Shown here piece after piece: positions 3,948 through 54,166 of a DNA stretch of 64,000 nt. Source of the stretch: Eremomyces bilateralis CBS 781.70 (taxonomy: Eukaryota); NCBI GenBank assembly GCA_010015585.1, contig ML975159.1; one strand, written 5' to 3'. The position numbers and the translations under genes were made by a program. Numbering within the stretch: the first letter of the stretch is position 1; every line of letters begins with the position of its first letter. Under the pieces are notes generated by a model, which was not told where the DNA came from, made no database searches, and was given only the letters and a program-made list of their open reading frames with translations.

Positions 3948-5661
3948 ATGAGCGCCGCAACTAAGGCGCAGTCTCAGCGGATCTTCGAGAAGCTACGCGC
4001 CAAACCGGCCAACAGGGTGAGCCCTCCTTCTGGCGATGTGGCATACATTTTGGAAGCACCAGTCACTGATCGCTGTTGTAGGTTTGCTTCGATTGCGGCA
4101 CCAAAAATCCAACATGGACTTCGGTTCCCCTCGCCATTTACCTCTGTCTGGACTGCTCTGCGAATCACCGGAATCTCGGTGTGCACATCTCCTTTGTGCG
4201 GTCGACCAATCTTGATAGTAAGGATCGACAATAAGGATTGCGTCCATCCGATACTGACACCCATCTAGTATGGCAGTGGGATCAGCTGAGGCTGATGAAA
4301 GTTGGTGGGAACGAATCAGCCACGAGATACTTCCAAACTCATGGAGGCTCCGCCGCCCTTGCAAGCAAAGATTCAAAGACGAAGTACACGTCGAATACGG
4401 CGACGAAATACAAAGAGGAACTCAAACGGAGAGCAGAGGCAGATGAGAGACAGTACGTTCCATGCTTTGGATATACTATGAGATTCTAACATATCTCAGA
4501 AACCCTGGCGAAGTCGAAATCAATGACGCTGTTAATCCGAACTCCGGCACCAGCACTCCAGCCGGAGAACCCGACGACGACTTCTTCTCCTCCTGGGACA
4601 AACCCACCATCAAACGGCCTAGCAACCCGCCTTCACGAACCGGTACCCCTGTTGGAACCAGCCGCACTGCCTCTCCATATCTCAACCCCAATGCCAACGG
4701 AAACGGTGCCACTCGTCCCAAATCACCCCTTGCAACTCCTGACTCCGCCACACAATCTCCTCGCCCTCAACCCGTCACATCCGCCGCGATCCGGAAATCT
4801 ACCACCACAAGCGGCACGACGACACGAAAGAGCACGGTCCTCGGCGGGAAGAAGAAGCTCGGGGCCAAGAAAATCGCCCCGAGCGAAGCTCTCGACTTCG
4901 AAGAAGCAGAGAAGAAAGCCAAGGAGGACGCCGAGCGGATCGCAAAGCTCGGCTACGATCCCGACGAGGAGACTCCCCCCATCCCGTCCAGCGCGGCGAC
5001 CGCAACCCCATCAACTATCCTTAGCCCCACACCCGTAAGCCCCACCCCGACCGGCGGCTTCGGCACCACCGCCAAGCCCCGCGACCGTGCCAGCAACGAT
5101 ATGGACCGCCTCGGCATGGGCGTCACGCGCCTCGGCTTCGGACAAGTCGGCGCAGGCCCCTCCAGCGCCGCCGCCCCCAAGAAACCGGGCTTCGGCTTCG
5201 GCGCCGTCGCCAAGCCCAGCGCCACCACCGCGAACGACGAAACCTACGCACGCCAGAAATTCGGCGTGCAAAAGGGCATCTCGTCAGACGAGTTCTTCGG
5301 GCGCAACGCGTTCGATCCGTCGGCGCAGGCGGAGGCGAAAGGGCGGCTGCAGGGGTTCGAGGGTGCGACGAGCATCTCGTCGAACGCGTACTTCGGGCGG
5401 CCGGAAGAGGATATGGAGGAGGATGGGGAGTATGGTGACCTGGAGTCAGCAGCGAAGGATTTCGTGCGGAAGTTCGGTATGACGGCGGGGGATGACTTGG
5501 ATAATTTGACGGCGTTGGTGGGTGAGGGAGCGAAGCAGTTGCAAGGTATGTATCTATAATCGTATACCGCGCTTCGCGTAGTTTGGGGATCGGGGGTGTT
5601 TTTTCGGTTCGTCTTGGCTAATCGGTCAATAGGCGCGATTAGGGACTATCTGAATGGTTAG
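3948..5661 (+). CDS. GLO3: ADP-ribosylation factor GTPase-activating protein (Glo3/ArfGAP2-3 type), multi-exon
   Basis: [23 protein letters not shown], then spliced [44 protein letters not shown] zinc finger and [17 protein letters not shown]. Glo3 motifs [10 protein letters not shown] and [11 protein letters not shown]. Last exon GAIRDYLNG* ends at 5661. Confidence 0.93.
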
Positions 5662-7099
5662 GTAGGTCTGACGATGCACAACTCGTCTTCAATGAATGGT
5701 CGATGAATATCATGAGACGGTCCAGTGGCTCAGCTAGCAGTATGTTCAATTGCTATTCCCGGCGCGTTTCTTGCTCGGTTGGTGTCGGATAGCATTAGCA
5801 ATACCTAGGAAAATGCGCATATTTTCAAAGCCACCGGTGCACCCCCTTCTGCAATTTCTCGTCTAACACCTACGTACACCCACTTTCCCCCGCGATATGG
5901 GCCGCCCTTCGCCATCGCCAGGCCCTTAACGTCTCACCTGTCTCTCACTGTCCTTGATACTTCCTCCCATCTCCTTGACTCCATTCCGAGAATCGTCTTC
6001 GTCCACTTCTCCATATTAACCCCCTCTTCCCTCCCCCTATTCTCATACACCTACGCCTTGCTCCACCCCGTCCCCACCTCCCACTTCCACCTACGTGCAT
6101 CTACTCTTCCACATGGACTACCTCCTGGTCTGCGACAATACGCGCACGGATACCACATGTGCGCTGTTTTGCCCACAACTAGGCTTGATGGGGCACAGAT
6201 AGTTATAAGTACGTCCAGTGACATGATCGAGCTCTTCACCAACTACCGTCGCCTCGGGGTTTCCTTTGAAGACATGTTGCCAGAGCTTTGAGGATTGCTT
6301 GTATCACAGAGATTGTTCGGTCTACTGGGTGTTGTGTGTGTATGCAGAGCTGACTGCGCCACCTAGAATATGGCCATGATTGCCTAACTTCTGTTAAGTA
6401 CGGGCTTTAGCAACTCAGCTGAACCCTCATGGCGCTTTTAGCATTCATATCGAAGATAGGGGACATGGAAAGGAGAATTAATGCAGGTGATGAAGGTGAA
6501 TTGTTAGGTAGCCACATGACTTGACAGGACTCCTGCAGGCACCGAACCTGAAGGCCTCCGTCCTTCCGCCACCCCGGCGGGGCCGGAAAAAGTCAGACGG
6601 TGGAAGTATGTCTTACTAACTTATCGTATTGTAAGGCCTTGGAAACTAAGCTTCACATGGATAACTACCGTATGTACGGCTCAACCGCTCGTCTCACGCA
6701 GTCTCTCTCTCAGTTCCCCTCTCCCCAAGCCACTCACCATACATCAAAGCAGATTCACGGGGAAATCGATCGTGTATTGATTTCCTAGCCCAGAGGTCAA
6801 TAACTTCGAGCAAGGTGGTTCTGCGAGACGAAAGTGGTCATACAAAATGCATTCTAGAGCACCAAGATGGAAACTCACAACATCATGCTCCATCAGTGAT
6901 GCATGGATAAATAGTTGAATACCGACATTCTAGAATTACTCCATCTAATTTCCTTAATACCCTTTTGCCAACTATCGTCGTTCACTCAGGGGTTCTCGTA
7001 ACGCGGTCTGTGAGCCCCTACCACACGTATTCCATCGTCCTCCAGAATTATTATCACATTCCTCAGGCATAATGAACTCTGCCCAATCAGACATTCAAA

Positions 7100-7600
7100 A
7101 TGCTGTCCCAGACGGCAACTTCTGCTGCTCCAGTAGCGGCTTCTGGTACGCCTCTCACATCCCCACAATCCACAAAACCCCACTGACCCATCACCCGGCG
7201 GCAACACCCCCGACTACTGTGGCAGCGGCTGCCAGCCCGACTACGGCGACTGGGCCAGCCCAAGCGTCTCAGCAATAGCGCGACCCCGACGGCCAGCGGG
7301 GCGTCACCTCGAACGGGCGATGTGGTCCGGGCAACAATAGCTAGATGTGTCTCCGGAACTCCACTCCCGGCCCGGGGGGGTTTTGGTTGTAGTATCGATA
7401 GCTGGTGGTAAGTAGCCATCATCTCTCTTTTTGGCTCTTCTGGCTCGCTCGTCCACTCTGGACGCGGATATAGGGAGTCCACGCACTACTGTGGACGGTA
7501 CTGACCCGCGTGATCGAAACCAGCGGTTCAACCGATGTATACTGCGGCATGGGATGCCAGCCGCTCTACGGCATCTGCGGCACCAGTTTCAGCGAACCAC
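7100..7600 (+). pseudogene. Decayed tandem hevein/CBM18 chitin-binding domain gene
   Basis: Spliced reading gives PDGNFCCSSSGFC/GNTPDYCGSGCQPDYGD and NGRCGPGNNS*MC...FGCSIDSWC/GSTDVYCGMGCQPLYGIC. Lesions: in-frame TAG (7342-7344), frameshifts, and first intron acceptor reading cgg instead of cag. Confidence 0.72.
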
Positions 7601-52192: not shown

Positions 52193-52715
52193 ATGGACGC
52201 CATCACAGCCTATCTCCCGCAACACGCTGGTTTTCTTCCGAAGTGGCTCTTTTTCGTAAATACTCAATGATCACTCTATTCGTTTTTAGACTACAGTACA
52301 ACTAACCATACAATCACCACCTCAGACCGGCATCATCTCCATCGGCAACAGCATCCAAGCCTACTCCACCCTCGAATTCACCAAACGAGTCTACAACGGC
52401 GCTCCCACAGCCGATGGCAAAGACACCGACAAGAAGCTCTCCGCCGCCAGCCCCGTCACCCCACTCGCCGCGCACCTCTTCGCCACATGGACCTTCACCT
52501 CCGCCATGGTCCGTCTCATCGCAGCGTACCACATCACCACCCCGCCGATCTTCTGGCTAGCGTTCGTGACATATACCATTGCATTTTCGCACTTCGGCGC
52601 GGAGTGGCTCATTTATGGGAACACCAAATTGGGGGCGGGATTGGCGGGGCCGCTGGTGGTGAGCACGAGTACGATCGCTTGGATGTTGTTGACCTGGCAG
52701 GAGTATTTGGGCTAG
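52193..52715 (+). CDS. ERG28: Ergosterol biosynthesis scaffold protein Erg28, 2 exons
   Basis: GFLPKWLFF / ISIGNSIQAY...VTPLAAHLFATWT...AFSHFGAEWLIYG. Confidence 0.9.
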
Positions 52716-52746
52716 CTAGGTCGGGGGGTTAGACTGGTTGATACAG

Positions 52747-54166
52747 TTATTGGGAGTCGAGACTTGTTCGATACAGTTCGCCGCCACAAGCTCGGAGTCG
52801 TGCCGCGGCCTGCTCGGGTGTGATATCGCGTTGGGGCTCGGCGAGCAGTTCGTAGCTAGAGGTTGTTAGCGAAAATCAACGGAATATGCTGGAAGTTGCC
52901 ATACCCAACCAAGAATTTCCGAACCGTGGCGCTGCGCAGTAACGGTGGGTAGAAATGGATGTGGAAATAGCTCGCGTCAATCTCCTCCTTCGTCCCCGTC
53001 AACGGCGCCTGATGGATTCCCATGCCTACGAACGATTAGCCACTCATCCAGAAACCCAAGATCATCTCCACTCACTATACGGAAACTGCGTCTCAAACAA
53101 ATTATCATACCGCCTCACCACCTCTGCAATGCACTCCGCCAACTCCACCCGCTCCCCCTCGCTGAAATCCACCAACGCACGCTTATGCTCCTTCGCCACG
53201 ATCATCACCTCGAACGGCCACACCGCCCACCACGGACACACGGCCAAAAACCCGCCATTCTCAAACACTACCCGCTCCCCCTTTTCCGCCTCCAGCGCCG
53301 CATAGTCCCCCAACAAATGCACTCCCCCCTGCTCCCGCCGATACCGCTGCATCTGCTCCAACTCTGCCGCCGGCTCCTCCGGGAGCGAGTCGGTCGTCCA
53401 CACCTGCCCGTGCGGATGCGGGTTCGAGCAGCCCATCGCCGCGCCCTTGTTCTCGAAGATCTGCATCCAGCGGTATTGCTTCTGCGGTGCGCTGGTCGTG
53501 GCCGGACGGTGGCTAGTGGGCGGCACGGTGGTGGAGGTGGAGTGCGCGGCGAGCGGGGACGTCGGGTCCAGGTGCGCGGTGTAGATGTCTGTCCAGGCGT
53601 GGATGATGGGGAGGATTTGCGCGGGGGTCATGTCGGCGAGGGTGAGGCGGTGGGAGCGGGAGAAGGTGAGGACATAGCATTTGCCTGTGACGGGTTCGGC
53701 GCGGAGGAGGCGGTTTGCCGGCGCTGGGGGTGTCAGTCCGTGGGTTCGGGATTGGGTAGATGCGAGAATGCTCACTCCCGTCTTGGTCGGGCGCGTGGTA
53801 CTCAGCTTGCACCTCCTTCACGGCGCTATAATCATTGACGAAGACGAAGGTGTTTTCATACGCCGGGTTCACGTCGCCTGATGCGCGCTTGTTTCCAGGA
53901 CAGAGGTAGCACTGCGCATGGTGTCAAAATTCTGTCCAACTTCTCGAGCACTAGAGCATACTTCGGGATCATGTTCCGGCAGGGTAGTCTTCGATGCCGA
54001 CTCCTGCTGGCCTCTGTTGCCGTCGTTAGAAGCAGGCCGAGCCAAATGGTGCTGTGCCAACTTACTGCCATGGTCGCTTTGTCCGATGAGGGGAAACCAG
54101 TACCCAGCATCCTTTGAGCGGATTGTATCGGCGGTGCGATATTTCGTCCAAAATTTGGTCCGGCAT
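52747..54166 (-). CDS. GAL7: Galactose-1-phosphate uridylyltransferase, multi-exon
   Basis: [38 protein letters not shown], active site [61 protein letters not shown]. Confidence 0.94.

Follow-up and report, generated by a model that had tools for sequence, protein, structure and literature searches.

In a 64,000-nt stretch of contig ML975159.1 of the fungus Eremomyces bilateralis CBS 781.70, here called the window (G000:C11:495111-559110 in a genome assembly of 26.9 Mb and 95 contigs), many genes change on the sense strand from a C-rich to a G-rich block on the way to their stop codon. These C-to-G flips are real and strong. We favour, with a probability of roughly 0.4, the reading that they result from a non-adaptive substitution bias which acts at the DNA level symmetrically about a centre, by strand-asymmetric repair around breaks starting in 3' coding exons.

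The flips were scored in the window and in a wider sample of 859 kb (the window and 800 kb drawn from four contigs), which represents about 3% of the genome. A purpose-written gene finder yielded 353 models, of which the 254 that were complete, N-free and at least 450 nt long were retained. A gene was counted as switching if a C-to-G change-point at the four-fold sites of its last 1200 nt reached a log-likelihood ratio (LR) of at least 8; in addition, a step test compared G versus C over 300 nt on either side of a position, with 30-nt block shuffles as the null. All 12 switch points named in an earlier note on this DNA were recovered by the step test with offsets of at most about 100 nt and z values of 4.5 to 13.1 (z ≥ 6 in 9 of 12). 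The window contains 11 up-steps with z ≥ 6, compared with an average of 0.015 in block shuffles, and 15 of its 18 gene models of at least 450 nt have a change-point with LR ≥ 8 (null 0.13%); the STEEP1-like gene falls below this length cut, its switch being visible in the site map. When four-fold skew was followed by distance from the stop in the wider sample, 133 of 254 genes switched, compared with 0.13% of shuffles, and no change-point (LR below 8) was found in the other 121. The proposed location near the 3' end was borne out, the switch lying at a median of 357 nt upstream of the stop (5th to 95th percentile about 150-810 nt), and so were the effects on synonymous sites, where four-fold positions flip from C to G in these 133 genes, and on amino acids, with His, Pro and Thr enriched to the left and Gly, Glu, Trp and Val to the right.

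No public run is recorded as RNA; run X3 nevertheless has spliced joints, and among the joints listed 14 of 15 agree with predicted introns, the remaining one lying outside the coding models. Gene identities were checked with Pfam, the hemerythrin match being under the curated cut-off, and both MFS-type transporters were named from reading of their translations. Among named relatives, the best are mostly from Dothideomycetes. Faulty models in the window are the 5' part of FOL1, the hemerythrin gene (spurious intron) and the pogo open reading frame (ORF). A search for polymorphism or a close relative revealed no differences in the public runs X3 and X1, only short matches of less than 90% in run X4 and no match in run X5.

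The switch domains of the window are given below. Weaker switches that were absent from the earlier note are those of the MFS-type transporters (817 and 41606), MTHFR (44836), a nitronate monooxygenase (31788) and the non-coding step near 43640.

500 to 1200, minus strand: MFS-type transporter 1; centre about 820, beyond the range given in the earlier note; LR 17.3.
4950 to 5640, plus strand: ArfGAP (GLO3-like); centre about 5280; stop 5661; LR 34.8.
8300 to 9000, minus strand: DDI1-like; centre about 8690-8740; stop 8189; LR 17.0.
13420 to 14250, minus strand: broken hemerythrin-like gene; centre about 13800-13950; z 9.3.
25430 to 26200, plus strand: 3' end of the intronless 930-aa ORF; centre about 25850; stop 26195; z 10.9; LR 43.9.
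26400 to 27350, minus strand: FOL1 pterin-binding exon; mixed centre about 26650-26800; stop 26405; LR 26.5.
29850 to 30780, plus strand: GH47; mixed centre about 30210-30350; stop 30654; LR 34.6; the G-rich tail extends into the 3' flank.
36700 to 37400, minus strand: GH3; centre about 37040, some 900 nt upstream of a poly(A)-like loose end at 36143; LR 30.6.
41230 to 41813, plus strand: MFS-type transporter 2; weaker; centre about 41600; LR 11.0.
42600 to 43250, plus strand: the domain spans the STEEP1-like gene; centre about 42970; z 13.1, the maximum of the window.
43400 to 43940, no strand assigned: non-coding step at about 43640, in the interval separating the converging stops of the STEEP1-like gene and MTHFR; z 7.2.
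44500 to 45070, minus strand: MTHFR; weaker; centre about 44840; LR 11.8.
49150 to 50600, plus strand: GH31; centre about 49900; stop 50651; LR 27.5.
50780 to 51600, minus strand: IFA38-like reductase; centre about 51095 (residue about 227); stop 50786; LR 31.9.
52280 to 52760, plus strand: ERG28 exon 2; centre about 52540-52600; stop 52715; LR 14.5.
53020 to 53760, minus strand: third-last exon of GAL7 (648 nt); centre about 53410-53440; stop 52747; LR 19.5.

The switch had been described as abrupt, but this does not always apply: in FOL1, GH47 and IFA38 a mixed GC-rich centre lies between pure C and G runs. It is not limited to core genes, as it also occurs in the 930-aa ORF, which has no Pfam match, and in the broken hemerythrin gene. 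Among the genes said to lack it, DUF4246 indeed has no switch (LR 1.4) and the pogo ORF has no clean one by eye, its model being poor; the NLR gene is uninformative because its 3' end falls outside the window. The description as strand-specific, with a polarity that follows transcription, had to be abandoned: the mirror values are the same for genes on either strand and, as a C-then-G block reads C-then-G on both strands, the statement is a tautology. The gene determines only the position and strength of the switch, not its polarity.

The switch-anchored profile of the 133 genes is its own reverse complement. At four-fold sites the frequencies of C and G are 0.71 and 0.11 at -150 and 0.11 and 0.70 at +150, values which are somewhat inflated because the same sites placed the switch; independent two-fold sites concur (C-ending codons fall from 0.88 on the left to 0.37 on the right, and G-ending ones rise from 0.44 to 0.88). 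The GC content at four-fold sites (GC4) has its maximum of 0.84 at the centre; in 79 genes that lack a switch it is 0.57. Measured against A and T, the gain is 1.58 log units for C on the left and 1.85 for G on the right, with no change in the other strong base. On both sides alike, C rises relative to A, T and G on the strand whose 3' end points toward the centre, and this gain fades over 300-450 nt. The strengths of the two arms are coupled (rho -0.38, 86 genes). At four-fold sites, AT skew remains close to zero as GC rises, and the bias has no flanking-base context, hence no deaminase- or CpG-type signature. No motif marked the centre, as no 5-mer exceeded z 3.9 against synonymous shuffles and only a mild CpG/CGCGC preference was seen.

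Strong steps lie in genes in 112 of 120 cases, genes making up 53% of the DNA; 111 are in exons, 51 belong to plus- and 61 to minus-strand genes, and the centres are located in intron-free coding DNA. The slope runs from C to G in each of the six exon classes. Exons shorter than about 1100 nt switch near their middle, and in the 24 last exons of at least 1500 nt the C block is found 400-900 nt upstream of the stop, with no adjoining intron. Gaps between genes slope the other way, from G to C, in each of the four orientations, and the 72 down-steps are found at gene boundaries (52), at introns (15) and within exons (5). Neighbouring genes are alike in strength regardless of orientation (r about 0.23-0.29, significant at lags 1-3). 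T-over-A codon preference serves as a rough indicator of high expression, and of the 10 genes in which it is strongest only 2 have a switch. Convergent neighbours as a cause were rejected, an association of p 0.045 on its own being lost in multiple regression (t 1.3). The sample of the longest contig (G000:C1:500001-700000) contains 0.75 strong steps per 10 kb, compared with 1.45-1.85 in the samples from C4, C11 and C20.

The overall density, 120 steps in 859 kb or about one per 7 kb, argues against replication origins, for which each flip would mark the place where a fork starts, the leading strand being G-rich. The sign is that of bacterial origins, according to the background given in PMC3315797, and the feature is strand-symmetric; but a skew that is gone within about 450 nt and tied to stops and exons does not fit, the long-range G+T excess of a leading strand was not seen, and T is not raised at four-fold sites. 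We consider origins extremely improbable.

The bias reaches beyond silent sites. Introns within 400 nt of a centre have a skew of -0.55 on the left (n=45) and +0.15 on the right (n=26; p 3e-9), with a baseline of -0.14. They are scarce within 100 nt of a centre, where 4 were seen (0.08-0.23 per kb vs about 1.4), and this scarcity may partly reflect introns missed by the gene finder in GC-rich DNA. The G arm continues into the 3' flank at lower amplitude, and genes without a switch show a smaller amino-acid drift of the same sign. In IFA38 and GH31, skew-changing replacements relative to the ortholog consensus went toward C in 25 of 38 cases on the left and toward G in 21 of 32 on the right (p 0.016), and in this comparison E. 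bilateralis ranked 5 of 120 and 2 of 120.

The earlier note had offered three explanations, the first being a selected long-range fold-back of the C arm with the G arm, in mRNA or single-stranded DNA. A hairpin would naturally yield the mirror composition, and inverted-repeat z values above 3 against block shuffles in 2 of 12 window switches speak for it. However, folding energy was not lower than in synonymous shuffles (mean z 0.13 and 0.18, 36 genes), fell to z ≤ -2 against block shuffles in just 1 of 12 window switches, and the arms returned by the repeat search are short and in conflicting registers. Cross-arm Watson-Crick alignment was at chance (median p 0.45, 122 genes). Allowing G-U pairs gave a small cross-arm excess (median p 0.39, Wilcoxon 1e-4, 122 genes), and an own-arm residual of +0.28 standard deviations (p 0.04) was obtained with Watson-Crick pairs only; both would favour pairing, but the G-U excess faded with finer shuffle zones (p 0.13) and was similar in a control incapable of forming the hairpin (p 0.015). 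The excess of arm pairing is thus at most faint and control-dependent. Introns also carry the skew although they are spliced out. We consider fold-back very improbable.

The second explanation, G-quadruplex (G4) signals, fared no better: 44 sense motifs in 30 of 133 genes, with 40 antisense, compare with 50.8 ± 3.3 in shuffles, and GGG and CCC runs were not in excess over synonymous shuffles. These results also count against the broader possibility of a selected 3'-end signal, either a G-rich RNA tail (R-loop, pausing or protection from premature polyadenylation) or C-run and G-run tracts that arrange nucleosomes. Selection of this kind could account for the near-saturated bias in coding exons, where the strong steps are found, for a position common to orthologs and for the weaker bias of introns and flanks than of silent sites. 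Yet about half of the genes (121 of 254) do without a switch, its distance from the stop spans about 150-810 nt and that from the poly(A)-like end of GH3 is about 900 nt, convergent orientation has no effect in the multiple regression, and a signal in the sense RNA leaves the equally strong C arm unexplained. We therefore regard a 3'-end signal as unlikely. A positional substitution bias, the remaining option, fits best.

Such a bias could stem from transcription or chromatin, by sense and 3'-born antisense transcription, R-loops and strand-biased repair near gene ends or splice sites; a mutational hypothesis was proposed by McLean and Tirosh (PMC3315797), in whose data weak links between skew and expression are described. 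This would agree with positions tied to stops and exon edges, with the involvement of non-coding sites and with the lack of a switch in MAT1-1-1 and SPO11, which are presumably little transcribed. Equal arm amplitudes would, however, require equal sense and antisense pressure, and a near-zero AT skew at four-fold sites with rising GC and no sequence context is unlike C-to-T damage. Moreover, the genes with codons of the high-expression type are the weakest, though codon selection could mask the effect there. Altogether, we judge an origin in transcription or chromatin to be rather unlikely.

As the pattern is mirror-symmetric, context-free and GC-raising, covers introns, flanks and amino acids, is clustered and is weakest under codon selection, we infer a DNA-level substitution bias about a centre, for which we propose repair around breaks. 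The centres would be start sites of double-strand breaks and heteroduplex, probably meiotic, and on each side the broken molecule would contribute the strand ending 3' at the break. C-bearing mismatches on that strand would escape repair more often, as expected if C:C mismatches are poorly repaired, so that the top strand would keep C to the left and G to the right of the break. Keeping C on the strand that has its 3' end toward the break would give the observed sign, and breaks spread across exons but rare in introns and gaps would produce the C-to-G slope of exons and the G-to-C slope of gaps without further assumptions. Long-resident genes would accumulate the bias, and strong codon selection would mask it. 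Repair around breaks is consistent with the mirror profile, the coupled arms, the skewed introns, the exon and gap slopes, the lack of context, the replacements and the likeness of neighbours; SPO11 and MAT1-1-1 are present in the genome. It also agrees with the exonic hotspots of Zymoseptoria (PMC5844332) and with conversion tract medians of 432-539 bp (PMC10294615), which are close to the arm width.

Several points weigh against break repair, first of all that the mechanism is inferred from composition only. In the parts of the Zymoseptoria studies drawn on here, GC-biased conversion was weak or absent in intergenic 10-kb windows (PMC5844332), and only a weak GC bias was reported, with conversion highest in heterochromatin (PMC10294615). 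Hotspots were mostly not common to sister species (PMC5844332), whereas distant fungi have the IFA38 switch at matching residues. On the strand that gains C the model predicts a loss of G, which two-fold sites show and four-fold sites do not. Intron and 3'-flank amplitudes are about half of those at four-fold sites and intron GC rises little; the tract-wide local GC peak expected of a hotspot is thus seen at synonymous sites and is weak in introns. In the open-access literature searched we found neither poor repair of C:C mismatches nor the conversion model, the latter being no proof of its absence from print. No MAT1-2-1 was seen beside MAT1-1-1.

MAT1-1-1, one gene taken as a non-recombining control, has no switch (LR 1.5, GC4 0.50), and the adjoining gene reaches LR 23.5; low expression explains this equally well. 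The gene is located at G000:C9:180775-182070 with no HMG-box match nearby. APN2 and SLA2, the usual neighbours of MAT1-1-1, were not recognised among the predicted genes in the surrounding 40 kb.

It is conceivable, if doubtful, that the flips record, like a fossil, where meiotic breaks have occurred in 3' coding exons of filamentous ascomycetes, the record being left by a strand-wise, C-over-G biased conversion that ordinary GC-content tests miss. If true, this record would explain a fungal gene-end skew open since 2011 and would show a neutral drive rewriting C-terminal protein sequence. In any case, about half of the sampled genes have almost all of their silent sites fixed across several hundred bases by the force at work, which also pushes amino-acid replacements, and codon-adaptation scores, dN/dS, phylogenies and gene prediction will be distorted in such fungi. 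The basic phenomenon has been published, which limits the surprise; a skew formerly known as an average now has gene-by-gene coordinates, so that the hypotheses predict differently at defined sites.

Several genes of the window deserve separate mention. The hemerythrin-like gene (13500-14220, minus strand) has two lesions, a frameshift near 13950 and, at 13619-13621, an in-frame TGA; plausible coding sequence continues past them, and the gene would be either a pseudogene or an assembly error in a GC-rich flip. An RNA-like X3 contig spans MTHFR (minus strand) down to 43332 (window 43282-43940), and a GT..AG joint on the plus strand lies at 43282-43332, behind the STEEP1-like stop. The STEEP1-like gene and MTHFR thus have overlapping convergent 3' untranslated regions (UTRs) with a UTR intron, and the step at about 43640 lies inside this non-coding stretch. 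The stops of ERG28 (plus) and GAL7 (minus) are separated by 31 nt (window 52715-52860), and therefore their 3' UTRs probably overlap coding exons. The 930-aa ORF (23403-26195, plus strand) carries three short degenerate repeats near 25130-25410. By eye, a tRNA-like sequence with an apparent intron was noticed at 42450-42530, upstream of the STEEP1-like gene. A pogo-type DDE transposase ORF (57440-59053) has inverted ends near 57300 and 59120, and its flanks (region 55990-60570) contain pieces that by eye resemble a second transposase. The fungal NLR-like gene (61100-64000, plus strand) encodes PNP_UDP_1 and NACHT domains and ankyrin-like repeats.

For a comparison with other fungi, the 31 closest IFA38 orthologs among 80 metagenome loci were used; metagenome orthologs are about 52-66% identical in protein, a distance too great for judging compensatory changes between the arms. 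The sign of the switch was the same in 24 of 31. Six reached LR ≥ 14, and five of these switch at residues 216-242 (227 in E. bilateralis); two of the five are mutually 94.8% identical. In a tree with 30 named proteins, the loci with a switch are scattered, and one weak locus groups as sister of two strong ones, although this is a single gene with weak deep support. Judged from these sequences, the position of the IFA38 switch is apparently shared across fungi and its strength labile. Two close metagenome loci have 8 differences at 139 four-fold sites, too few for a substitution rate in flips.

McLean and Tirosh (2011; PMC3315797) described an averaged skew of fungal genes, C at the 5' and G at the 3' end, which reaches silent sites, amino acids and UTRs and whose cause is left open in the part of the paper relied on here; their group four consists of C-biased genes with a small G-biased 3' region reaching into the UTR. 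Both patterns affect four-fold sites and amino acids and leave AT skew flat, and Pezizomycotina were sampled there. Three features of the published skew are found in E. bilateralis: a 3' G bias (four-fold skew +0.53 in the last 100 nt of 113 genes spanning at least 1500 nt), a 5' and promoter C bias (skew of -0.20 upstream and of -0.24 over the first 100 nt, the bias being weak in 9 genes whose first exons are long) and the effect on four-fold sites, amino acids and the 3' flank. The published average is a three-part ramp, whereas single genes of E. bilateralis pass from nearly all C to nearly all G; instead of a flat middle and a linear 3' rise, they have a C block ahead of the G tail, even within intron-free exons, and the slope begins anew with each exon. 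The local C block before the G tail, the mirror, the GC peak and the restart in each exon are, relative to the portion of that paper considered, seen only in E. bilateralis. With the three features in common and the ramp shape different, the flips are an extreme, block-like variant of this published, unexplained gene-end skew.

The Dothideomycete Zymoseptoria tritici has 1435 of 2578 recombination hotspots in exons and 132 in introns (PMC5844332) and conversion tracts of the same order of length as the arms (PMC10294615). Classical GC-biased gene conversion is strand-symmetric and cannot prefer C over G, and is weak or absent in the Zymoseptoria data cited. The GC-rich inverted repeats of Umbilicaria pustulata (PMC7186782) resemble the flips in their intragenic GC peak, self-complementary composition and median length of 819.5 bp. 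In the part of that report used here they are treated as inverted repeats and a sequencing problem, whereas the complementarity in E. bilateralis is compositional. By this analogy, the Umbilicaria 'inverted repeats' of about 800 bp may be the same feature, a lead for further comparison.

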